Shown here one piece after another: positions 2,349 to 50,749 of a stretch of 64,000 bases of DNA (positions within the stretch are counted from its first letter, which is position 1; the number at the start of each line of letters is the position of its first letter). The DNA comes from an uncultured Polyangiaceae bacterium (GTDB lineage: Bacteria > Myxococcota_A > Polyangia > Polyangiales > Polyangiaceae). The position numbers and the translations under genes were made by a program. The notes beneath the pieces were generated by a model that saw only the letters and a list, made by a program, of their open reading frames with translations, was not told the DNA's origin and searched no databases. The stretch is taken from the NCBI GenBank assembly GCA_964480725.1, contig CAYZQO010000020.1, positions 3,401 through 67,400 of the forward strand, in the 5' to 3' direction.

Positions 2349-2969
2349 TCACGCCGCGGCGACGAGCGCGCGGATCCTCGTCACCAACATGTCGATGCCG
2401 ACCTGGTTCTCGCCGCCCTCGGGGAGGATGACGTGAGCGTAGCGCTTGCTCGGCTCGACGAACTCGAGGTGCATGAGCCGCGTCGTCGCCTGATACTGTT
2501 CGATCACGCCGGCGAGCGTGCGCCCGCGCTCCGCGATGTCACGCTGGATGCGCCGGATGAGGCGCAGGTCGGCGTCCGTGTCGACGAAGACCCGGATGTC
2601 GAGCTGCCCCCTCACCTCGGGATCGGCCAGAATGAGGATGCCGTCCACGATCAGCACCGGACTCGGAGGGATCCTGCGCGTGCCGGACGCGCGGCAGTGG
2701 CGGGAAAAATCGTAGCTGGGCGCGTCCACCGCTCGACCCGCTCGGAGCGTCGCGAGGTGAGCGACGAGCAGGGCCGTGTCGAGCGCGTCCGGGTGGTCGT
2801 AGTTGAGGCGCGCGCGCTCCGTCTCCGGGACGTGCGACCGGTCGCGATAGTACCAATCGTGCTGGATCACGGTGACGGCACGGTCGCCGAGGGCGCCCAC
2901 GATGGCGGCGACGATGGTGCTCTTGCCGGCGCCCGTCCCCCCCGCCACCCCGATGACCACCGGCCTCAC
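2349..2969 (-). CDS. udk: Uridine kinase
   Basis: The C-terminal 206 aa of track ORF 2349..3908 carry the signatures RPVVIGVAGGTGAGKST (P-loop), NYDHPDALD, VDGILIL and RRIQRDIAERGR. The start was set to GTG 2969-2967 to give the canonical short N-terminus. Confidence 0.9.
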   Translation of the reverse strand: MRPVVIGVAGGTGAGKSTIVAAIVGALGDRAVTVIQHDWYYRDRSHVPETERARLNYDHPDALDTALLVAHLATLRAGRAVDAPSYDFSRHCRASGTRRIPPSPVLIVDGILILADPEVRGQLDIRVFVDTDADLRLIRRIQRDIAERGRTLAGVIEQYQATTRLMHLEFVEPSKRYAHVILPEGGENQVGIDMLVTRIRALVAAA

Positions 2970-3101
2970 GCCGGCAAGCGTCGCGGCTAGGGGCTCGGAA
3001 CACAAGCCCCGCCACGCCCCCGCGCAGGGGACGGCGCGGCGCGCGACCGCCGGCGCCGCCGGACTTGCTGCCCCGGGCGGGATGCTGCTACGGCCCGGCT
3101 G

Positions 3102-3989
3102 ATGCGCCGGACTCCTACCCTCGTGTCGTGGTCCGCGCTCGCCCTCGTCGCCGCCGCGGCGGCCGCGACGAGCGGGGTCCTGGCTCACGCCGTGCCCGAC
3201 GCCCGCGCGGTCGCCGCGCCGGAGGGGCCACCGCGCGTGGTGTCGCTCTCGCCCGCGGTGACAGAGACGCTGTTCGCGATCGGCGCGGGGGAGGCCGTGG
3301 TCGGCGTCAGCGACTTCTGCTCGACCCCACGCGACGCGACGCCGCGCCCGCGCACGGGGACCAGCCTGGGGCCGAGCTACGAGCAGATCGCCGCGCTCCG
3401 CCCCTCGGTCGTCGTCACCAGCAGCACGCCCGCGGCCCGGCTCGACGGGCTCCGTGCGCTCGCCCCCACCCGACAGCTCGCCTGGCTCACGGTCGCCGAG
3501 GTCGCGGCGTCGACCCGCGAGCTCGGGCTGCTCGCGGGGCGCCCCGCCGCCGCGACCGCGCTCGCGGACCGCCTCGAGGCGACGCTCGGAGCCCTGCCGC
3601 CCGCTGGCGCCCCGCGCCTCCTGCTCGTGCTCGGCGGCACCCAGGCCGAGGCGGAGATCTGGTACGTGAAAGCGAACTCCATCCACGGCAGCACTATCAC
3701 GGCCGCGGGGGCGCTGAACGCCGTCCCCGCGCCCGTCGCAGGCGCACCGGTGATGAGCCTCGAGCGGCTCCTCGCCGTCGATCCCGATCTCGTCATGGTG
3801 CTGGGCGGCGGCGAAGCGGGCGCCGCCGCGACCCTGGGCGCGCTCCGCCGGCTCACCGCGCTCACTGCGGTTCGGCACGGACGCATCGGCGCCCTGTCCG
3901 ATCCGCATCTGCTCGTACCCGGCCCTCGCGTGCTCGAGCTCGTCGAGGTGCTTTCGCGGTGGGTTGCCGCACAGATGGGGAGGCCGTGA
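3102..3989 (+). CDS. ABC transporter periplasmic binding protein, BtuF/FhuD-type (cobalamin/heme/siderophore class)
   Basis: It has a signal peptide (SWSALALVAAAAAATSG). VVSLSPAVTETLFAIGAGEAVVGVSDF resembles the BtuF N-lobe motif. It lies in an operon with a FecCD permease and an ATPase. Confidence 0.85.
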   Translation: MRRTPTLVSWSALALVAAAAAATSGVLAHAVPDARAVAAPEGPPRVVSLSPAVTETLFAIGAGEAVVGVSDFCSTPRDATPRPRTGTSLGPSYEQIAALRPSVVVTSSTPAARLDGLRALAPTRQLAWLTVAEVAASTRELGLLAGRPAAATALADRLEATLGALPPAGAPRLLLVLGGTQAEAEIWYVKANSIHGSTITAAGALNAVPAPVAGAPVMSLERLLAVDPDLVMVLGGGEAGAAATLGALRRLTALTAVRHGRIGALSDPHLLVPGPRVLELVEVLSRWVAAQMGRP

Positions 3990-4786
3990 CGACGCTCGCG
4001 CTGGCCGGGGTCACGGTCCGGCGGCGGGCCGTCGAGCTCGTCACCGACCTGTCGCTCGCCCTCCGCACCGGGGAGCTCGTGGTGCTGGTGGGTCCGAACG
4101 GCGCCGGCAAGTCCACGCTGCTCCGGGCCGCGCTCGGCCTGGTGCGCCTCGACCGCGGGCTCGTGACGGTCGACGGCCAGGACGCAGCGTCACTCTCACC
4201 CCGAGAGCGCGCAGCGTTCCTCGCCTGGCTCCCGCAGACCAGCAACGTCGAAGAGCCGCTCACGGTCGCCGACCACGTGGCGGCCGCGCGCTTCCGCTTC
4301 GGCGAAAGGGTGGTGCGGGCGAGAGAAGGGGCGAGGCGCGCGCTCGCTCAGGTGGACGCAACCGCGTTGGCGGACCGACTCCTCGCGACGCTCTCCGGAG
4401 GCGAGCGACAGCGCGTGGCGCTGGCGGCGGTCCTCGCCCAGGAGGCACCTCTCCTGCTGCTCGACGAGCCGGCGAACCACCTCGATCCCCGGCAGCGGCG
4501 CGAAACCTTCCTCCTCATCGCCCGCCTCGCGCGCGCCGGACGCGGCATCCTCTGCGTTACCCACGACGTCGGGCTACTGGCGGGGCTCCCGACGACGGGA
4601 TCGACCCGCGTGGTGGGGCTCCGCGGCGGCCGGCTCGCGTTCGAGCTCCCGCTCGGCGACCCCTCGCTCGCGGCTCACCTCGGCGCGCTGTTCGATCTGC
4701 GGCTGTCGTTCGCCGAGCGCGAGGGCGAGCGCGCGCTGGTGGCCTGGTGGCCCCGACCCGAGGCGGAGGAGCCGCCGTGCGCGTGA
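3986..4786 (+). CDS. ABC transporter ATP-binding protein (BtuD/FepC-like)
   Basis: GTG 3986 overlaps the upstream stop (GTGA). It carries Walker A GPNGAGKST, signature LSGGERQR and Walker B LLLLDEP. Confidence 0.9.
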   Translation: MTTLALAGVTVRRRAVELVTDLSLALRTGELVVLVGPNGAGKSTLLRAALGLVRLDRGLVTVDGQDAASLSPRERAAFLAWLPQTSNVEEPLTVADHVAAARFRFGERVVRAREGARRALAQVDATALADRLLATLSGGERQRVALAAVLAQEAPLLLLDEPANHLDPRQRRETFLLIARLARAGRGILCVTHDVGLLAGLPTTGSTRVVGLRGGRLAFELPLGDPSLAAHLGALFDLRLSFAEREGERALVAWWPRPEAEEPPCA

Positions 4787-5736
4787 GGCGACCTGCCCTC
4801 CTCCTGATCGCGGTCACCCTCGCGACGATCGCCGGGGCACCGCTGGTCGGCCCCCCCCTCGACCCGGAGACGGGCGCGTTCGTGCTCTGGCAGCTGCGCG
4901 TGCCGCGCATGCTCATGGCCGCGCTGGTGGGCGGGACCCTGTCCCTGGTGGGGGCTGCTTACCAGCTCGTGTTCGCCAACCCCCTGGCCACGCCGAGCAC
5001 GGTCGGCACCTCCGCGGGCGCGGTGCTCGGCGTCCTCGTCGCGGTGGTCCTCGGTCAACCGAGCACGACGGTAAACCTCCCCTGGCTCGCGCTGGCCGCC
5101 TTCGCCGGCGCCATCGCGACCACCGCTATCGTCGCCGGCTTGGCGGCAAGCGGACGCTCACGGATGCAGGACGTCCTGCTCGCCGGCATCGCGGTGACCC
5201 TCGCCGCGGGAGCGCTCGCCACGGCTATCGAGAGCATCGCCGACATCGGCCAGCGCTTCACCGTGAGCCAGTGGTCACTCGGCCACCTGCCGCAGGTGGG
5301 GTACCGCGGCGTTCTGGTGATCGTGCCACCGCTGGCCCTCGCCTGGGGCGGCGTCTTCGGTCAGACCCGCGCCCTGCACGCGCTCACCTCCGGGGAAGAC
5401 GTCGCCCGTACGCAGGGGGTCGACGTTCCACGCACCCGCGCCATCGCGCTCGGCGCCGGCGCCATCGGGGTGGCCGCCTGCGTCGCGTGGTGCGGCCCCA
5501 TCGGGTTCGTCGGGCTGATCGTCCCCCACCTCGTCCGACTCACCGGAGCCAGCTCCCCTCGGGCGCTACTGCCGCTCTCATTCGTCACCGGGATGGGCTT
5601 TCTGATCGGGTGCGACGTGGCGGCGAGGGTCCTCGTGCCCGGCCACGAAATCCCCGTCGGAGTGCTCACGGCGGCGATCGGCGCGCCCGCGCTCCTCGCC
5701 CTCCTGGCGTCACCCATCGCTCGACGCGCCTCGTAA
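4777..5736 (+). CDS. FecCD-family ABC permease (BtuC-like)
   Basis: GTG 4777 overlaps the ATPase gene end by 10 nt. The protein is polytopic and hydrophobic, with LRVPRMLMAALVGGTLSLVGAAYQ.. and GVLTAAIGAPALLALL typical of FecCD/BtuC permeases. Confidence 0.9.
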   Translation: MRVRRPALLLIAVTLATIAGAPLVGPPLDPETGAFVLWQLRVPRMLMAALVGGTLSLVGAAYQLVFANPLATPSTVGTSAGAVLGVLVAVVLGQPSTTVNLPWLALAAFAGAIATTAIVAGLAASGRSRMQDVLLAGIAVTLAAGALATAIESIADIGQRFTVSQWSLGHLPQVGYRGVLVIVPPLALAWGGVFGQTRALHALTSGEDVARTQGVDVPRTRAIALGAGAIGVAACVAWCGPIGFVGLIVPHLVRLTGASSPRALLPLSFVTGMGFLIGCDVAARVLVPGHEIPVGVLTAAIGAPALLALLASPIARRAS

Positions 5737-42875: not shown

Positions 42876-43499
42876 CTACGCACCGTCATCCAACCCGAGA
42901 CGCCGGCGCACCTGCGATAGCCGCTCGGCGACCCGATCGAGCACCTGCTCCTGGCCGATGGATCGAAGAAAATCACCGTACTCGGCGAGCCGAGCCCGCA
43001 GCGCGCGCCCGGCCGGCGTGTCCTCGCGGAGAGCGCGCGCGTCGTCGTCGACGACGTCGAAGTTGATGGTGCCCCGGCACCCCGGCACCCCGCAACGACA
43101 TGGGTCCCGGCCCGGCTGGTTGACGGTCACCCAGCCGTAGAAGATGGTGACCTCCTCGCCAGGCGCGATCGGTCGCCGGCACTGGATGCGCCCCTCGCGG
43201 TCCGAGTAGAGTTCCGCGTTCGGACAGCAGGAGTGATTGCAGAGCCACCCGCCCGGAACGGCGGTGTCGGGGATGATCACGGCCCAGCCCTCGGACAGGA
43301 GGGTGAGTTTGCCTTCTGCAGCGGCGATCGCCTCCGGGTCATCGAGCGGGAGCTTGCGCTGACTCGGCGCGTAGGGGACCACCACCTCACCGGCACCAAA
43401 CGCGCGCCGCGCAAAGACCCCGCGACCCTCGATGGAGCTCTGGCGGAACGCAACAGGCGCGAGGCTGAACATCGCCTTGGCGGCGTGACGCGAGGTCAT
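42876..43499 (-). CDS. SET-domain protein (putative protein lysine methyltransferase)
   Basis: The start is ATG 43499 (or 43472). SIEGRGVFARRAFGAGEVV, the NHSCCPNAEL motif, EEVTIFYG and a post-SET-like CRCGVPGCRG are present. Confidence 0.8.
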   Translation of the reverse strand: MTSRHAAKAMFSLAPVAFRQSSIEGRGVFARRAFGAGEVVVPYAPSQRKLPLDDPEAIAAAEGKLTLLSEGWAVIIPDTAVPGGWLCNHSCCPNAELYSDREGRIQCRRPIAPGEEVTIFYGWVTVNQPGRDPCRCGVPGCRGTINFDVVDDDARALREDTPAGRALRARLAEYGDFLRSIGQEQVLDRVAERLSQVRRRLGLDDGA

Positions 43500-43702
43500 C
43501 GGGGCCGGGGCTCCAGGAGCGCCGCCGTGACGGCGGTCGGCGCTGGCCAGTATGGCGGAGCGGGCGCGTCCCTGTCTGCCCCGGGGACGCCAGGCGACCC
43601 GCGCACCCGAGCGGCCCGCGGCACCGACGAGCGCGTGGCCTTGCCGGCGGTCCGCCCCGACCGCGACCCTCCCGGCAGAGCGGCCTGGCGGCGCGGGCGA
43701 GT

Positions 43703-43731
43703 TTGACAACCCGCACGCCAGCCGGTATCGC
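43703..43731 (+). promoter_or_regulatory. Sigma70-like promoter for the riboswitch-led operon
   Basis: TTGACA (43703-08), a 17-nt spacer, then TATCGC (43726-31). The predicted TSS is about 15 nt upstream of the aptamer. Confidence 0.4.
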
Positions 43732-43752
43732 CTGGCGACAATCGAAGCGTCA

Positions 43753-43901
43753 GGTCCCAGGGTGGGGAAGGTCGGTGCGATGCCGACGCGGTCCCGCCGC
43801 CGTATGTGGGGACGAAACCGGCCAGCAAAGCCACTGGGAGCGATCCTGGGAAGGCGCCGGGAGTAGGACGATCCACGAGCCGGAATATCCGCTCCGGGAC
43901 C
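43753..43901 (+). promoter_or_regulatory. Cobalamin (B12) riboswitch aptamer
   Basis: The conserved B12-element blocks appear in canonical order: GGTGGGGAAGG, GGTGCGATGCC, GCGGTCCCGCC, GCCACTGGG, CTGGGAAGGCG, AGTAGGA and the B12-box-like GAGCCGGAATATCCGC. The outer helix is GGTCCC (43753-58) paired with GGGACC (43896-901). It lies upstream of a TonB-dependent receptor operon. Confidence 0.8.
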
Positions 43902-44026
43902 GCGTGGGTGGTCGCCTCCGAGGGGAGGAGCCTCACGCTCTCAGCGCGGCACCTCGTGCCTCCGCGCCCCCCCACGACGCCCCCACCCATGACGGAGGAT
44001 CAGTGGCGGTCGACCAGGGATTTTTC

Positions 44027-45094
44027 ATGCGCCGCGCGGGGCGGGCGGCCTCGTGCCTCCTCGGCGGCGCGCTCTCGGTGTGGGGCTGCGGCCCAGCGAC
44101 CGACGACCCGTCGGCGGACGCGCCGGCCGGCGCCGCGGGCGCGACGACCGGCGCCACGGCGGGCACCGCGGGGGCGACGCTGGAGCTACCGAGCTGCCTC
44201 ACGCCGTGGGCGCCCTTGCTGGACGGCGTTCACCCCGGCGCCGTGCTCGCGTTCACCGCACCGTCGAGCGCGCCGCTCGAGGTGGGGACCGCGCTCGACC
44301 CGGCCGCAGCCGCGCCGGAGGAGTGGCTCGACCAGGAGACGGTCACGCTGCCCGAGACGGGAGCGCTCACGGTGTTCGCCCGCGTCGCCGACCCCGCCTG
44401 CGACGCCAGCTGGTTCTCGCACCGCTACCCCGTCGTCGCCGCCTATCCCGGGCCCGCGGGCACCCCCGACACCACCGCCATCGCGCGCGACGACCCGCGG
44501 ATCGCTGGCTGGGCCGCGGCGGTCGAGGCGCTGGAGCTCGGTGCCGGGAGTGACGATCCTGATCTCCGCGATCCGGCGCGCGCGCTTGGACCCGCGGAGG
44601 GGACCGCGCTCGACGCGGTGTCGCTCGGCGAGGGCGGGACGATCACGCTCCGCTTCGACCCCCCCATCGCGGACGGCGACGGCCCCGACCTCGCCGTCTT
44701 CGAGAACGGCTTCAGCGCCTCCTTCCTCGAGCTGGGGATGGTCGAGGTGTCGAGCGACGGCGTTCACTTCGTGCGCTTCGACTGCGCCTCCCTGGGGACG
44801 TCGCCGCTCGGCCCCTTCGGGACGCTCGACACCACTCTGCTCGCCGGGCTCGCCGGCAAGTACGAGCAGGGCCACGGCACCCCGTTCGATCTCGCGTCGC
44901 TCCGCGCCCGTCCCGAGGTCCAGGTCGGCGCCCTCGATCTCGCTCGCGTCACGCTGGTGCGCGTGGTGGACGTGGTGGGGGACGGGTCGGTCACCGACTC
45001 CTTCGGCCACCCCGTTTACGATCCGTACCCCACCGCCCAGACCGCCGGCTTCGACCTCGACGCCGTGGCCGCGCTCCATGCCGCGGGCCGCTAG
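44027..45094 (+). CDS. Uncharacterised lipoprotein, first gene of the B12-riboswitch operon
   Basis: ATG 44027 has an AGGGA SD 6 nt upstream. In-frame GTG 44003 behind GGAGGA is an alternative start. The signal peptide and lipobox are MRRAGRAASCLLGGALSVWGC. The conserved-looking core is GGTITLRFDPPIADGDGPDLAVFENGF...VEVSSDGVHFVRF. I recognised no named motif. Confidence 0.7.
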   Translation: MRRAGRAASCLLGGALSVWGCGPATDDPSADAPAGAAGATTGATAGTAGATLELPSCLTPWAPLLDGVHPGAVLAFTAPSSAPLEVGTALDPAAAAPEEWLDQETVTLPETGALTVFARVADPACDASWFSHRYPVVAAYPGPAGTPDTTAIARDDPRIAGWAAAVEALELGAGSDDPDLRDPARALGPAEGTALDAVSLGEGGTITLRFDPPIADGDGPDLAVFENGFSASFLELGMVEVSSDGVHFVRFDCASLGTSPLGPFGTLDTTLLAGLAGKYEQGHGTPFDLASLRARPEVQVGALDLARVTLVRVVDVVGDGSVTDSFGHPVYDPYPTAQTAGFDLDAVAALHAAGR

Positions 45095-47180
45095 CCTCCG
45101 CGCGCGAGGGTCGCGCCTCGCCGCGGCGCTCCTGACGACCGCGCTCACGGCCCCCGCGACCGCCACGCCGGACGCGGCCCCCCCGCCGGCAGCGCCCGCA
45201 GCGGGTGGCGGGGACCAGACCCCGGACCCGGACGCTCCGGCGCGCGCGACGCCACCTCCCATCGAGATCCGGATCGAGGGCGACGGGCGTCCGGGGCCCG
45301 CGCGGGATCCGTCCGCCGCCGCCACCGTGCTCCGTGGTGAGGAGCTCCAGCGCCCCGGCGCCAGCGTCACCGAGCTGGTCGCCGACGCGCCCGGGGTGCA
45401 GACGCGGCGCACGGGCGCCGACAGCGACCTGGCCACCGCGAGCCTCCGGGGCGCCACCGCGGCGCAGACGCCCGTGTACCTCGCGGGCGTGCGGCTCAAC
45501 GACGACGTGACGGGGGTCGCCGACCTCTCTACGGTCCCGCCCTTCCTCCTCCACCGGATCGAGCTTTACCGCGGCAGCGCCCCGGCCGAGGCGGATCGGC
45601 TCGGGATCGGGGGTGCGATCCTGCTCGAGCCCCGCCTCCCCATCGGCCCCGAGCTTCGCCTCGGCGAGCTCGTCGGGAGCCACGGCGCACGCGGAGCCTG
45701 GCTCGCGGCGGCCACGGGCGACGCCCGCCGCGGCGCCCTGGTCGCGCTCCGTCACGACGCGGCGACGAACGACTTCGACTACGTCAGCGACGCCGGCACC
45801 CGCTTCGAGCCCGCCGACGACCGCCGGGTGGAGCGCGCCAACGGTGACCACTCGACCTGGGATATCTGGTCGATCGGACGCTTCGCCGTCGGCGAGCGCG
45901 CGCGGGTGACCCTGGTCTATGCCGGCTTCGCCCGAGAGCAGGGCGTCACCGGTCTGTCCGTGCTGCCCGCGGCGCGGAGCCGCGCGCGGATCGGGCGTCA
46001 GCTCCTCGCCGCCTCCGCCGTCGTCCCCTGCGCGGCGGCCGACGGTGACCGCAACCGCTGTGAGCTCGAACTCGTCACCTCCGGGCTCGCCGCGAGAACG
46101 GCGCTCGACGACCCAGCGCGCGAGCTCGCGCTCGGCTCGACGGCCATCGCCACCGACGGCCGCCGCTTCGGGCAGGTGATCCGCTGGCGCGTCTCGCCGG
46201 CGCGCGCCGTCTCCTTGACGGTGAGCGGCGAACAGAGCGTGGAGACGGTCGCCCTCGCGCGGTCGCTCGACCCGGGAGGCGCCTTCTCGCTCGCGGCGCG
46301 CCGCAGCGTCACTCGACCGGCCGCGAGCGTCACCGTCACTCCCTCCCACACCGTCGAGGCGCTCGCCCTCACGGCGCTCGAGTGCCACGCGACGGCGGGC
46401 CCGGGGGGCAGCGCCGGGTGCGACGTGCTGGAGCCGGTGGGTCGCGCCGGGCTGCGGCTGAGCCCGGCACCGTTCATCGACCTCCTCGCCAACGCAGGCC
46501 GGACCGTGCGGGTCCCGACGCTCGGCGAGCTGTACGGCCTGGCCCCCCTCGTGCGCGGCAACGCCGAGCTGGAGCCGGAGACGGGCGCCGCCGTGGACGT
46601 CGGCGTCCGCGCTCGCGGCGACGATCCGGGCTCGGGGCTCGCGGGCGATCTCGAGGCGTTCGCCTTTCGGCGCCGGGTCGAGCACTTGGTGAGCTACCGC
46701 CAGAGCTTCCGCCAGCTCGTCCCCGAGAACCTCGGCGCAGCACGGATCCAGGGCCTCGAGCTCGCGGGCGAGCTCCGCTGGCGGCGCGCCCTGCGGCTCG
46801 GCACCACGGTGACCCTCGAGGACCCGCGCGACATCTCGCCCGACCGGACGCTCGCCAACGACCTCTTGCCGCTCCACTCGCGGCTGGTGGTCGCGCAGCA
46901 CCTCGAGGGGTCGCTCGCCCCCCACCGCGCGGGGCTCGACCGGCTCACCGCCGGCGCGCGGCTCCGCCACCGCTCCTCGCGCTATCAGGACCCGGCCGGT
47001 CTGGTCGTGATCCCGCGCCAGACTGCGCTGGATCTCGAGATCACGGCCACGCTGCTCGGCGATCGGATCGGGCTCAGCGCGGCGCTGGAGAACGCGCTCG
47101 ACGCCCCGGAGTGGGATCTCGTCGGGCTCGCGCTCCCCGGCCGCACCCTGACCGGCTCGCTGGAGGCTCGACTGCCGTGA
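45078..47180 (+). CDS. btuB: TonB-dependent outer-membrane receptor, BtuB-like (cobalamin receptor candidate)
   Basis: ATG 45078 overlaps the upstream gene by 17 nt. It has a signal peptide. The plug region VLRGEELQRPGASVTELVADAPGVQTRRTG..SLRGATAAQTPVYLAGVRLND..ADLSTVP..HRIELYRGSAP....IGGAILLEPR aligns with the E. coli BtuB plug. It is under riboswitch control. Confidence 0.8.
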   Translation: MPRAASLRARGSRLAAALLTTALTAPATATPDAAPPPAAPAAGGGDQTPDPDAPARATPPPIEIRIEGDGRPGPARDPSAAATVLRGEELQRPGASVTELVADAPGVQTRRTGADSDLATASLRGATAAQTPVYLAGVRLNDDVTGVADLSTVPPFLLHRIELYRGSAPAEADRLGIGGAILLEPRLPIGPELRLGELVGSHGARGAWLAAATGDARRGALVALRHDAATNDFDYVSDAGTRFEPADDRRVERANGDHSTWDIWSIGRFAVGERARVTLVYAGFAREQGVTGLSVLPAARSRARIGRQLLAASAVVPCAAADGDRNRCELELVTSGLAARTALDDPARELALGSTAIATDGRRFGQVIRWRVSPARAVSLTVSGEQSVETVALARSLDPGGAFSLAARRSVTRPAASVTVTPSHTVEALALTALECHATAGPGGSAGCDVLEPVGRAGLRLSPAPFIDLLANAGRTVRVPTLGELYGLAPLVRGNAELEPETGAAVDVGVRARGDDPGSGLAGDLEAFAFRRRVEHLVSYRQSFRQLVPENLGAARIQGLELAGELRWRRALRLGTTVTLEDPRDISPDRTLANDLLPLHSRLVVAQHLEGSLAPHRAGLDRLTAGARLRHRSSRYQDPAGLVVIPRQTALDLEITATLLGDRIGLSAALENALDAPEWDLVGLALPGRTLTGSLEARLP

Positions 47181-47191
47181 GAGCTACATTT

Positions 47192-48505
47192 ATGCGTCTG
47201 GACATATGTATGTTTCTGGCGGGCCGCGGCACGCACCGAAGCCTCCGTGGCCTTCTCGGCGCGGCGCTCGTCGCGACGGGAAGCGCCTTCGCCGCCGCAT
47301 GCGACGTCCCCCCACCCGCGCCGGCCGGGGGGGTCCTCCTCGTCGACGAGGACCCGGGCGGCTGTGCGCGCGGCTTCGTCGTGGTCAGCTCCGACTACCA
47401 GTCGACCAGCGTCGGGCTCGTCGCGCGCGACGGGACCGTCCTCGTCCCCTCGCTGCTGTCCTCCGGGAGCGCCGCCCCGGAGCTGTCCGCCGCGCTCGGC
47501 GGCGACGTCGTCCTGCCCACCATGGCGCCCGGCGGCGACGAGCTGGTCCTCCTGGATCGCTACCCCGCCAGCGTCGTCACCTGGGTCGACCTCCGCACGG
47601 CGAAGGTGCGCGGGCAGCTCTCGGTGGCCACCGGCTTCCTCTCCAACCCGCACGACTACATCATGATGGCGCCGAACCGCGCCTACGTCACCCGGTTCGA
47701 GTCCAACGCCGCGCCGGGCTCGGAGCCCTTCGACGCGGGCGGCGATCTGCTCGAGCTCGACCCGGACCGGCTGGCCATCGTGGGGCGGATCCCGCTCGAG
47801 CCCGCCCTCGAGGGCGAGCCCGGCGTGCCGCTGCCGCGCCCGGATCGCGCAGCGTGGGTCGACGAACGGCTCCTGGTGCTCCTCGGCGGCTACTCGGCCG
47901 ATTTCGCCGTGTCCGCGGCCGCACGCCTGGTCGCGGTCGACCCGGACGCAGCGAGGATCGAAGAGACGCTGGTCCTCGATGGCGTGCACGGTTGCTCGGG
48001 GCTCGCCCTGTCCCCGGACGGGAGCGAGCTCGCCCTCGCGTGCACGGGCGAATGGGCCGGCGATGGCGTCCCGGACCTCGCCGGCTCGGCCGTGGTGCGC
48101 GTCCGGACCGCGCCCCCGCTGACCGAGCTCGGCCGCACGACGGCGACGGAGTTCGGCGAGGGGCCGATCGGGATGTCGGTGAGCTACGCGAGCCCGTCGC
48201 GCCTCGTCTTCACGACGCTGGGCCGCTTCGGCGACGCCGCGGCGCCCGCGCTGGACGATGCCCTGGTCGAGCTCGATCTCGACGACGGGACGCACCACAC
48301 CCGGCTCCGCTCGACGGGAACCCCGTTCACGCTCGGGGACGTGAGCTGCGACGCGAGCTGCGGCGTCTGCTTCGTCGCCGACGCCGGACGGGACGGCGGC
48401 GTCCTCCAGCGCCTCGTCGTCGGCGACTCTGGACTGGGAGAGCCCACCGCGATCACCCTCGCGGACGGCATCGGGCTGCCCCCACGCCACGTCGCCACGT
48501 TCTGA
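47192..48505 (+). CDS. Uncharacterised lipoprotein (beta-propeller-like), third gene of the B12-riboswitch operon
   Basis: It starts 11 nt after the receptor stop. The lipobox is TGSAFAAAC. The sequence is repetitive and beta-strand-rich (..LVLLDRY.., ..AYVTRFE.., ..LLVLLGG.., ..LALSPDGSELALAC.., ..LVFTTLG.., ..CFVADAG..), reminiscent of YncE-like propellers (inference only). Confidence 0.7.
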   Translation: MRLDICMFLAGRGTHRSLRGLLGAALVATGSAFAAACDVPPPAPAGGVLLVDEDPGGCARGFVVVSSDYQSTSVGLVARDGTVLVPSLLSSGSAAPELSAALGGDVVLPTMAPGGDELVLLDRYPASVVTWVDLRTAKVRGQLSVATGFLSNPHDYIMMAPNRAYVTRFESNAAPGSEPFDAGGDLLELDPDRLAIVGRIPLEPALEGEPGVPLPRPDRAAWVDERLLVLLGGYSADFAVSAAARLVAVDPDAARIEETLVLDGVHGCSGLALSPDGSELALACTGEWAGDGVPDLAGSAVVRVRTAPPLTELGRTTATEFGEGPIGMSVSYASPSRLVFTTLGRFGDAAAPALDDALVELDLDDGTHHTRLRSTGTPFTLGDVSCDASCGVCFVADAGRDGGVLQRLVVGDSGLGEPTAITLADGIGLPPRHVATF

Positions 48506-48616: not shown

Positions 48617-50749
48617 ATGGCAAGCCTGCGAGTCGATGCGTTCGTACTGTTCGGTGCCCTGGCGGGGGCCGCGGCGTGCAAGAGCGGGCCCGACGACGGT
48701 TGTGCGGGCACGCTCTCCTGCGACGGCACCGCCTCGATCGACGGCGGTGGATCGAGCGCGGGGGGCGAAGGCGGCACCGCCGACGAGGCTGCGAGCGGGG
48801 GTGATCCGGCCCGTGGCGGCGCCAGCGGGGGTCCGGGCGGGGCCCGGCCGGGGGACGACACCGGCGGCGCGCTCCCCAACGGTCGCGCGGGCGCCGCCCC
48901 AGGGGGCGCCGGCGGCCTCTCCGCGGAAGGACGCGCCGACGCCGGTCCGGGGAGCGCCGGCGGCCTCTTCGCGGAAGGACGCGCGGGCGCCGCCCCAGGG
49001 GGCGCCAGCGGCCTCTCCGCGGAAGGACGCGCCGGAGCGCCGCTCCCGAGCGCGGGGAGCGCGAACGACACCGGGAGCGCGGGCGACGCGGGGGGCACGG
49101 AGACCGCGAGCGATTTCGGGCCGTGCGAGGTGGATGGAGCGCTCGGGTGCGCCGAACCGGCGGGGGTGGCGGCGCTCCTCTGCCACGACGGCGCCTGGAC
49201 ACTCCGGCAGACCTGCGGCCCCACGGAGCGCTGCGACAGCGCGAGCGGGACCTGCCTCCCCATCGCCCCGGGCTGCGCCGACCTCGAGCCGGGCGCGGCC
49301 TTCTGCTCGACGGACCGGGTGCTGACCACCTGTGGGCCGGACCTCGTCACCACCGAGGACACCCCCTGCGAAGCGCGCTGCGACGAGAGCGCCCGTGCCT
49401 GTGCCGAGCCCACCTGCGGCGACGGCGTGCTGCACGACGACGAGCAGTGCGACGACGGCAACGAGGACGCCGGCGACGGCTGCACGCCCAACTGTCGGCA
49501 CGAGGCCGTTTCCCTCGCGCTCGGCAGCACGCACAGCTGCGCCCTGGGCGCGAACGGAACGGTCAAGTGCTGGGGCGGCAACAGCTCGGGACAGCTCGGC
49601 CTTGGCGACACCCAGGCTCGCGGCGACGAGCCCAGCGAGATGGGCGAAGCGCTCACCGCCGTGAACCTCGGCGAGGGGCGGCAGGCCCGGGCGCTCGCCG
49701 CCGGCTCCGCTCACACCTGCGCGCTCCTCGAAGACGGCGCGATCAAGTGCTGGGGCGCGAACACCAAGGGTCAGCTCGGCCTCGGCGACACCCAGGATCG
49801 CGGCGACGAGCCCAACGAGATGGGCGACGCCCTTCACACGGTGGAGCTCGGCGTCGGGCGCACGGCGGTCACGCTCGCGGCTGGGGGCCACAACACCTGC
49901 GCCTTGCTGGACGTGGGCACCATCGTCTGTTGGGGTGACAACGAGTACTCGCAGTGCGGCTCCTCGAGCTCGCCCGCCATCGGCGACGAGCCCAGCGAGA
50001 CGGGAGGCTCCCTCGTCCGCATCGACCCGCCCAAGCCCACGCGGTCCCTCTCCGTCGGAACCGGCCACGTGTGCGCCTTGACGACGGCCGGCGATGTGTA
50101 CTGCTGGGGCGACAACCGAGGCGGGCAGCTCGGCGTCGGCGTCGACGAGGCGCTCGACGGACCCGTCGACGAGGTGAGGGAGGGGCTCCTCGGCGTCGAT
50201 CTCGGCGCAGACCGGACCGCGATGACGGTCGGGATGGGCACCTGCAACTACGGCTACAAGTCGGACTCGGCCCCCTTCTCCTGCGCGATCCGGGACGACG
50301 GGGCGCTCCGCTGCTGGGGATACCTCGGCTTCCTCCTCGCTGACGCCAGCGAGGTCGGCAGTGAGCCGAACCAGCTGGGCGCCGCGCTCCCCACGTTCGC
50401 CCTGCCCCCAGGGCGCGCAGCGGTCGCCCTCGACGCCGGGTGCCGGCACGTCTGCGTGCTCGAGGACGACGGCGGCGTGCGCTGCTGGGGTGCGACCGAC
50501 GTGTTCGCCGGCGGGCACGATCCGGTAGCGGCGGGCATTGTCCCGGACGCCGTGCCGCTCGGCAAGGGACGCCGGGCGAATGCCCTCTCCGCCAGCGGCA
50601 GTCACACCTGCGTCCTGCTCGACGAGGGCTCGGTCAAGTGCTGGGGCCTGAACAGCTCCGGTCAGCTCGGCCTCGGGGACGTGACCGAACGGGGCAACGT
50701 CGTGACCGCGCTCGGCGACGCCCTGCCCGCGGTCCCCCTCACCTTCTGA
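48617..50749 (+). CDS. RCC1-repeat lipoprotein (7 repeats) with Gly-rich tandem repeats and one myxococcus-type Cys-rich repeat
   Basis: The lipobox is FGALAGAAAC. The Cys-rich repeat is CGDGVLHDDEQCDDGNEDAGDGCTPNC. There are seven ..CWG.N..GQLG.. blades. Confidence 0.85.
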   Translation: MASLRVDAFVLFGALAGAAACKSGPDDGCAGTLSCDGTASIDGGGSSAGGEGGTADEAASGGDPARGGASGGPGGARPGDDTGGALPNGRAGAAPGGAGGLSAEGRADAGPGSAGGLFAEGRAGAAPGGASGLSAEGRAGAPLPSAGSANDTGSAGDAGGTETASDFGPCEVDGALGCAEPAGVAALLCHDGAWTLRQTCGPTERCDSASGTCLPIAPGCADLEPGAAFCSTDRVLTTCGPDLVTTEDTPCEARCDESARACAEPTCGDGVLHDDEQCDDGNEDAGDGCTPNCRHEAVSLALGSTHSCALGANGTVKCWGGNSSGQLGLGDTQARGDEPSEMGEALTAVNLGEGRQARALAAGSAHTCALLEDGAIKCWGANTKGQLGLGDTQDRGDEPNEMGDALHTVELGVGRTAVTLAAGGHNTCALLDVGTIVCWGDNEYSQCGSSSSPAIGDEPSETGGSLVRIDPPKPTRSLSVGTGHVCALTTAGDVYCWGDNRGGQLGVGVDEALDGPVDEVREGLLGVDLGADRTAMTVGMGTCNYGYKSDSAPFSCAIRDDGALRCWGYLGFLLADASEVGSEPNQLGAALPTFALPPGRAAVALDAGCRHVCVLEDDGGVRCWGATDVFAGGHDPVAAGIVPDAVPLGKGRRANALSASGSHTCVLLDEGSVKCWGLNSSGQLGLGDVTERGNVVTALGDALPAVPLTF
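48886..49035 (+). repeat. In-frame 48-nt tandem repeat (3 copies) inside the RCC1 gene
   Basis: GCGCC(G/A)GCGGCCTCT(C/T)CGCGGAAGGACGCGC recurs at about 48905, 48953 and 49001. It encodes GGLSAEGRA(D/G)A(G/A)PG(S/G)A units. Confidence 0.7.

Follow-up and report, generated by a model that had tools for sequence, protein, structure and literature searches.

In Bacteroides thetaiotaomicron, uptake of vitamin B12 across the outer membrane depends on a TonB-dependent receptor, BtuB, and an adjoining lipoprotein, BtuG, both encoded in a riboswitch operon (PDB 8BMX, 8P97, 8BLW; DUF5074/PF16819). BtuG is a seven-bladed propeller that forms a lid and binds B12 at femtomolar affinity. A second partner, BtuH2 (BT1956, PDB 7BIZ), is encoded upstream of a btuB-type gene in the same operon and consists of three PKD immunoglobulin (Ig)-like domains followed by a globular B12-binding domain. 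BtuG and BtuH bind cobalamin and cobinamide alike through the corrin ring (PMC10404256, PMC8941943). In Escherichia coli, the btuB leader places an RF00174 aptamer before an outer-membrane B12 receptor operon and exerts its control on translation. Here we analyze a 64-kb stretch of DNA from an uncultured Polyangiaceae bacterium, a soil-type myxobacterium (contig CAYZQO010000020.1; hereafter the window), in which a cobalamin riboswitch precedes three genes, A, B and C, encoding a lipoprotein, a TonB-dependent receptor and a second lipoprotein. The operon probably serves corrinoid (vitamin B12) capture and uptake in this Polyangiaceae-type myxobacterium, as a divergent BtuH-BtuB-BtuG system.

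Such a system would be unexpected from the published distribution of its parts. BtuG homologues have been described as exclusive to Bacteroidetes (eLife 2018, PMC6143338), lipoprotein-capped TonB transporters are seemingly exclusive to the same phylum (PMC10404256), and a review of September 2026 (PMC13616437) finds BtuH beyond Bacteroidota only in three Firmicutes, with a wide distribution only for BtuJ/DUF4465. The latter (PF14717), a family of accessory extracellular B12-binding jelly-roll proteins, extends far outside Bacteroidota; the window module itself contains no DUF4465 gene. The literature that we searched contained no link between BtuG and Myxococcota, save a DUF4465 survey naming the phylum in passing, which agrees with a first-pass annotation of this DNA, made from the sequence alone, that was aware of no such partners in Myxococcota.

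Similarity of the flanking lipoproteins to BtuG and BtuH

The first-pass annotation could name no motif in either lipoprotein, and database searches gave the same result, since neither gene A nor gene C matched Pfam, NCBIfam or PDB sequences. Searching PDB sequences with the family profile of gene C or the family hidden Markov model (HMM) of gene A likewise returned nothing, and a relaxed Pfam scan, which included 47 gene A family members, found only fused EGF-like repeats or noise in both lipoprotein families, with no match to DUF5074/PF16819 at E<=1 for gene C or any of 45 members of its family.

Structure and profile comparisons were more informative. The AlphaFold2 model of gene C, built with 45 homologues, has a mean predicted local distance difference test (pLDDT) score of 90 and 27 strands, a number compatible with seven blades, and in a Foldseek search of the PDB its ranks 1-13 were all occupied by BtuG, above every other propeller (E 5e-13 to 2e-11, TM-score on target length 0.68-0.78; BT2095, BT1954/BtuG2, BtuG3 and BACUNI_02894). 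For comparison at the profile level, six lipoproteins from Bacteroidota loci served as the set of true BtuG proteins; the two that were scanned both match DUF5074/PF16819, and one matches BtuG3 at 3.6e-65. With hhalign, the gene C family aligned to these BtuG2/3-type proteins at 94.5% (E 7.7e-8, full length, 324 columns), with negative controls at 1.5% or below. In addition, a plain BtuG HMM matched two gene C family members weakly (about 6e-4 among 4482 open reading frames, ORFs), and a propeller from a Spongiibacteraceae locus (L075), which was matched by both the gene C HMM (1.6e-8) and the BtuG HMM (2.6e-6), is on these profile matches a link between the two families. Judged by its predicted fold and family profile, gene C is probably a remote homologue of BtuG.

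The resemblance extends to the lipid-anchor Cys (Cys37), which is invariant in the gene C family. Unlike BtuG, gene C is about 80-100 residues longer, has four further invariant Cys, lacks the Bacteroidetes export signal and belongs to a host in Myxococcota. The Glu that is invariant in the 'LNEG' motif of BtuG has as its counterpart in gene C the nearly invariant Asp68, a hint, from a rough mapping of the BtuG2 corrin contacts, that a contact position may be shared. By analogy with BtuG, gene C may likewise bind a corrinoid and form a lid. The family is large (1290 clusters at 50% identity, E<=0.001, in a profile search of a representatives library). One candidate fusion of an N-terminal domain to a propeller, P0279, was set aside as a probably over-extended gene call, the extension having no Pfam match and reading as non-homologous. 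The start of gene C may be ATG 47210 instead of 47192, because the homologue P0121 is 431 aa long.

Gene A encodes a signal peptide with a conserved Cys (Cys21, at least 90% conserved among homologues), a disordered linker, an Ig-like beta-sandwich (residues ~50-136, numbered from the ATG) and a C-terminal domain, 'domain X', of ~215 residues (~140-355). The best PDB match of its AlphaFold2 model (pLDDT 88) in Foldseek was chain 7BIZ_B, BtuH2 with B12 (E 4.7e-6, probability 1.00), and rank 5 was a chain of BtuG1, a protein to which a BtuH domain is fused. When C-terminal domains from 44 loci were combined into a profile, its sole match among PDB sequences was BtuG1, with the match inside the BtuH domain at a weak E of 0.068. 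At the BLAST-level threshold that has been applied to BtuH (E<=0.03 to BtuH1, BtuH2 or BtuG1, PMC8941943), phmmer and the family HMM found no BtuH among PDB sequences. A set of BtuG1/BtuH proteins for comparison was recovered from gut metagenomes, beginning with a 48-residue BtuG1 fragment, which led to one 80-aa protein and from there to a metagenome scan. Aligned with hhalign to the BtuH domains of this set, the gene A domain scored 95.2% (E 2.9e-8; controls at most 0.4%), and the two share the motifs YxPAxGQ and SLGxGGxITxxF..PIxN..G.DFxxxxN, a D..(W/F)(Y/L)EL-type stretch and a C-terminal strand. By profile comparison, gene A appears to be a remote homologue of BtuH. An assignment to DUF4465/BtuJ was rejected, as neither gene A nor its family members matched PF14717, nor did gene C or its family.

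Like BtuH2, gene A lies upstream of a btuB-type gene in the same operon, with one Ig-like domain in place of the three PKD domains. Unlike BtuH, the gene A domain forms a well-conserved family of its own, which in Bacteroidota also occurs alongside true BtuG. The first-pass annotation had suggested that the two lipoproteins may be functional analogues of BtuG and BtuH and had proposed structure modeling followed by Foldseek; with BtuG in the best 13 matches of gene C and BtuH2 as the best match of gene A, that suggestion is supported and, with the hhalign results, exceeded, in that the relationship appears to be one of remote homology. In sequence terms, the A and C families are too divergent for any curated model to recognize.

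The receptor and the riboswitch leader

The product of gene B contains Plug (PF07715, 2e-14) and TonB_dep_Rec_b-barrel (PF00593, 2.7e-19) domains and so has the domain composition of BtuB, a plug and a 22-strand barrel. Its best solved relative is E. coli BtuB (8e-12), followed by BtuB2 and BtuB3 of B. thetaiotaomicron (4e-8 to 5e-6), and the earlier description of a BtuB-like receptor whose plug aligns with E. coli BtuB therefore holds. Gene B falls below the BtuB equivalog models (TIGR01779, 65.5 bits vs a cut-off of 599.7; NF007926, 57.4 vs 836), and its match to them is confined to the plug region.

Upstream of gene A, cmscan with Rfam 15 identified a cobalamin riboswitch (RF00174, 71.1 bits vs a gathering score of 31.5, E 1.6e-15) that spans model positions 1-189 without truncation and is the sole Rfam match above gathering score within the window, confirming the B12 aptamer that had been proposed from its sequence blocks. 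The aptamer ends 92 nt before the start of gene A on the same strand, with the BtuB-like receptor gene further downstream. The E. coli btuB leader is similar in that its aptamer precedes an outer-membrane B12 receptor operon, it has no intrinsic terminator and its Shine-Dalgarno (SD) sequence and start codon lie in the conserved leader; the leader described here differs in being GC- and C-rich and in having a lipoprotein gene as the first regulated gene.

To describe the leader, we aligned that of the window with those of four relatives (L005, L167, L001 and L168), which show 63-94% identity in the gene A protein. Across the five leaders the aptamer hardly varies, and GACGGAGGATCAGTGG is invariant in all of them. 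Also invariant are TTGACA, a 17-nt spacing and TATC, with differences in the spacer and the upstream flank. A consensus scan of the leader made no promoter call, because the -10 hexamer is weak. Of the promoter proposed earlier, the sequence is present and its hexamers and spacing are kept in the five leaders, but the consensus scan does not call it; we retain it, on the basis of its conservation, as a candidate from which transcription would start a few bases before the aptamer.

A terminator scan found no intrinsic terminator in the leader, and control is therefore probably exerted at translation initiation. GGAGGA followed by GTG is invariant in the five leaders, with UCA (3 nt) between the SD and GTG 44003. 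Upstream, a hairpin, CCUCC-GAGG-GGAGG at 43915-28, has both arms changed together in L001 and L168, to CCUUC/(G)AAGG, and CCUCC occurs in the C-rich tract of each leader at a shifting position. The CCTCC and GGAGG elements of the SD-sequestering expression platform put forward in the first pass are thus real, but folding and RNAalifold support no particular masking helix, as discussed below. The leader also bears on the start of gene A, which is most likely GTG 44003 rather than the ATG 44027 assumed previously, because the GTG is in frame, the SD-GTG pair is invariant, L167 lacks an ATG at the downstream site and the closest homologues are 363 aa long (355 + 8).

Distribution and gene order

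No Pfam model exists for the C-terminal domain of gene A. Its family spans at least 516 species representatives in about eight phyla, between which identity stays at 45-57%, and comprises at least 1666 clusters at 90% identity. Its hosts include Myxococcota, Desulfobacterota, Verrucomicrobiota (Akkermansia, Haloferula), Planctomycetota, Spirochaetota, Beta- and Gammaproteobacteria and Bacteroidota. Diverse aptamers aligned poorly with MAFFT, so riboswitches at these loci were surveyed by five Rfam batch scans. A cobalamin-class riboswitch was found upstream of the gene A domain in 45 of 55 loci (82%), again from about eight phyla, and in all 45 the aptamer was on the strand of the gene, 0.1-5.5 kb away. 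Neighboring genes encode TonB receptors, true BtuG, DUF4465/BtuJ proteins and BtuF/D/C-like proteins.

Beyond the window, the A-receptor-C module is present in at least 11 other Myxococcota loci, and among the loci examined the complete module is confined to this phylum. In Bacteroidota, the order is gene A-domain protein, receptor and true BtuG, which is the order seen in the window. The synteny behind B12 riboswitches that the first-pass annotation had proposed as a test is therefore observed, both in the conserved order of the module and in the riboswitch linkage of the gene A domain. Bacteroidota copies of the domain carry a type IX secretion system (T9SS) C-terminal sorting domain, which points to a position at the surface or outside the cell in that phylum. 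DUF4465/BtuJ genes are often found in the same riboswitch-controlled loci as the gene A domain (L017, L054, L079), and these neighboring DUF4465 proteins have PEP-CTERM or T9SS tails.

Two cultured myxobacteria have the module. Minicystis rosea DSM 24000 (L165) has it together with a cobalamin riboswitch. In Sorangium sp. So ce1182 (L166:417-7350), a short gene A-like protein that belongs to the gene A family (99.3%) is followed by a receptor and gene C, and the module is divergent from adjoining CobT-, CobS- and CobC-like genes, a setting that hints at salvage of incomplete corrinoids.

The survey also revealed several unusual arrangements. At L075 (1-7333; Spongiibacteraceae, Gammaproteobacteria), a riboswitch is followed by a gene A-domain protein, a propeller, a second riboswitch, a TonB receptor and a weakly gene C-like lipoprotein. 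In a deltaproteobacterial metagenome-assembled genome (MAG; L019:1935-3615), the gene A-domain gene is preceded by two cobalamin aptamers, and a c-di-GMP-I-GGC variant riboswitch (RF03167, 63.3 bits) directly follows the second of them, which suggests a tandem arrangement; in Desulfobacula (L023:794-877), the Rfam scan found RF03167 and no cobalamin aptamer. At four Planctomycetota loci (L021, L028, L029, L055), the gene A domain is the N-terminal part of proteins of ~2000 residues (~6-kb ORFs) behind cobalamin riboswitches. An Akkermansia muciniphila MAG (L082:5995-8986) encodes a 697-aa gene A-domain protein directly behind a cobalamin riboswitch; this protein is a candidate for B12 capture in a gut species that is of interest to medicine. 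Finally, two Bacteroidota loci encode a 427-aa propeller (L084:3396-4679, L059:5655-6938) in the interval from the riboswitch to the gene A-domain gene; the BtuG HMM matches these propellers weakly (1.5e-9 and 3.2e-7, respectively), the L084 copy, which was the one scanned, has a type IX secretion tail, and both may be BtuK-like, B12-binding proteins.

Layout of the locus and a candidate inner-membrane importer

The features of the locus are listed in Table 1. The G+C content of the window is 73%, and third-position GC content (GC3) together with the ORF coordinates bears out the three tightly packed plus-strand genes described earlier, with a 17-nt overlap of genes A and B (gene B ATG 45078 vs gene A stop 45094) and an 11-nt gap between genes B and C (stop 47180, ATG 47192). 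Every sequence string quoted in the first-pass annotation lies where it had been placed (TTGACA, TATCGC, the seven aptamer blocks, GGTCCC 43753/GGGACC 43896, CCTCC 43915 and 43959, GGAGG 43924 and 43994).

Table 1. Coordinates of the riboswitch operon and of an unlinked importer candidate in the window.
Feature	Coordinates	Strand	Details
Candidate sigma-70-type promoter	43703..43731	+	-35 TTGACA 43703-08; 17-nt spacer; -10-like TATCGC 43726-31; basis: conservation
Cobalamin riboswitch aptamer, RF00174	43743..43910	+	Full length; cmscan
Expression platform	43911..44002	+	Hairpin 43915-28; C-rich tract with CCUCC 43957-88; SD GGAGGA 43994-99
Gene A, BtuH-like lipoprotein	44003..45094	+	363 aa (GTG 44003) or 355 aa (ATG 44027)
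Gene B, BtuB-like TonB-dependent receptor	45078..47180	+	700 aa
Gene C, BtuG-like beta-propeller lipoprotein	47192..48505	+	437 aa, or 431 aa from 47210
Unlinked candidate inner-membrane partner	3102..5736	+	Binding protein 3102-3989; ABC ATPase ~3986-4786; FecCD/BtuC-like permease ~4783-5736

A candidate inner-membrane partner lies 40 kb away. The genes at 3102-5736 encode, in order, a Peripla_BP_2 binding protein, an ATP-binding cassette (ABC) ATPase and a FecCD permease with BtuC as its best match (Pfam, NCBIfam), and all three proteins score below the equivalog cut-offs. The Rfam scan of the window found no riboswitch near them, as had been stated when they were first labeled a BtuFCD-like importer; the label itself needs qualification, given the actual order of binding protein, ATPase and permease and the scores below cut-off. 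At another locus, L004, the A-receptor-C module is directly followed by a binding-protein gene, an ATPase gene and a permease gene, ordered as in the window, and the L004 and window binding proteins are 30% identical (E 1e-28).

Three further observations concern the surroundings. The plus-strand Peripla_BP_2 ORF at 3102-3989 shares ~800 nt with a minus-strand ORF (2349-3908) that encodes a PRK/uridine-kinase domain; probably one of them is spurious or does not extend over the whole of its mechanical ORF. A divergent minus-strand gene (42876-43709) next to the promoter, on its upstream side, encodes a SET-domain protein. On the other side, 111 nt after the module, a 710-aa lipoprotein (48617-50749) contains RCC1 repeats and a myxobacterial cysteine-rich repeat. 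Both the SET-domain gene and this lipoprotein gene have the same position in L167.

Discussion

Taken as a divergent BtuH-BtuB-BtuG system, the operon would work as follows. At high intracellular cobalamin, the aptamer would bind its ligand and the leader would refold such that GGAGGA/GTG is masked by one of the conserved CCUCC tracts, stopping translation of the operon without a terminator. When B12 is scarce, the three proteins would be made from translationally coupled genes. Gene A, attached to the outer membrane through a lipid anchor followed by a flexible linker, would capture the corrinoid through its BtuH-like domain; the gene C propeller would bind the corrinoid on one face, sit on the receptor or dock with it transiently, and hand the ligand over. 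TonB would then energize import to the periplasm, where a BtuF/D/C-type ABC system, for which 3102-5736 is the candidate in the window, would take over. In this scheme, the riboswitch, the gene structure, the fold and profile relationships, the synteny and the riboswitch linkage are computational results, and we infer corrinoid binding by A and C, their surface exposure, lid formation and the translational mechanism.

Several results weigh against this interpretation. In the leader, the minimum-free-energy folds are no better than those of shuffled sequence (z-scores 0.80 and 0.87), and RNAalifold on the five leaders gave zero covarying pairs and an implausible long-range fold, so that no sequestering helix was pinned down. 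RF00174 has no match at gathering score in L011 or L166, both among the 11 related Myxococcota loci. For the lipoproteins, gene C is just 12-14% identical to BtuG and its hhalign comparison with BtuG1-type propellers is weak (10.7%), neither protein matches any curated family model, and the propeller and jelly-roll-like folds are both widespread. Against BtuH2, gene A reaches low global TM-scores of 0.33 (query length) and 0.26 (target length), as expected for multi-domain proteins that differ in domain arrangement. The residues after Cys37 of gene C (DVPPPAP) do not form a Bacteroidetes lipoprotein export signal; since that signal is phylum-specific, its absence leaves localization unsettled. 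Because the operon falls outside the curated models for BtuG, BtuH and BtuB while largely agreeing with the known proteins in fold, profile, lipoprotein character and operon context, we regard it as neither a new system nor an ordinary member of the known one. The candidate new corrinoid-capture module of the first-pass annotation is accordingly supported as a capture operon but not as a new kind of module, its arrangement being a divergent form of that in Bacteroides.

The localization of the lipoproteins is the point on which the most probable of the alternatives turns. They could act in the same corrinoid uptake from the periplasmic side, on the inner leaflet of the outer membrane, where they would receive or chaperone the corrinoid after the receptor, or stabilize the receptor, instead of forming a surface lid. 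The periplasmic side is the default destination of lipoproteins in diderms other than Bacteroidota, no Bacteroidetes export signal follows Cys37 (CDVPPP), and the apparent restriction of lipoprotein-capped TonB transporters to Bacteroidetes (PMC10404256) points the same way. We nevertheless consider this arrangement unlikely, as the Bacteroidota homologues of the gene A domain that carry a T9SS sorting domain would be surface or secreted proteins, the neighboring DUF4465 proteins bear PEP-CTERM or T9SS tails, the B12-binding face of BtuG points toward BtuB from the cell exterior (PMC10404256), and a BtuF-like periplasmic binding protein is already present.

The remaining alternatives concern the ligand or the role of the lipoproteins. 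Genes for cobalt transport and biosynthesis are also among the targets of cobalamin riboswitches, and the aptamer could be a sensor of B12 status only, with the receptor and its partners importing a substrate that is not complete cobalamin, for instance an incomplete corrinoid such as cobinamide, a cobalt chelate or a different tetrapyrrole. The failure of gene B to reach the BtuB equivalog cut-offs and the restriction of its BtuB similarity mostly to the plug would fit such a role, as would the Sorangium module, whose adjoining nucleotide-loop assembly genes (CobT, CobS, CobC-like) suit cobinamide salvage. The neighbors of the gene A domain in other phyla are, however, B12-specific (BtuG, DUF4465, BtuF/C/D-like), which makes a different substrate distinctly improbable in our judgment; as BtuG and BtuH bind both cobalamin and cobinamide, this possibility would mostly narrow the range of substrates and not change the function. 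That A and C are unrelated envelope proteins, co-transcribed with the receptor and having no corrinoid role, is highly improbable. Propeller and beta-sandwich folds are indeed very common, neither protein matches a family model and identities are 11-14%, but generic fold similarity does not account for same-strand cobalamin riboswitches at 82% of the 55 gene A-domain loci in about eight phyla, for a gene order kept from Bacteroidota to Myxococcota, or for the placement of BtuG at Foldseek ranks 1-13 for gene C, above other propellers, with hhalign controls at or below 1.5%.

If the BtuH-BtuB-BtuG interpretation is extended beyond this locus, lipoprotein-assisted and possibly capped TonB-dependent B12 uptake may be an old and widespread strategy and not a speciality of Bacteroidota, with Myxococcota having a complete BtuH-BtuB-BtuG-type relay and the gene A domain representing a large B12-binding family in about eight phyla, a generalization to which we give a little less than an even chance. 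Were it true, it would imply a route for the export of surface lipoproteins in these diderms. BtuH and BtuG surface proteins have hitherto been described almost only in gut Bacteroides. Should A and C bind corrinoids, two sizeable families without a Pfam or NCBIfam match would gain a function, the capacity for B12 scavenging could be better predicted from environmental genomes, the cultured Minicystis rosea and Sorangium would be available as test hosts, and the model of an extracellular cobamide relay would extend to soil and sediment bacteria.

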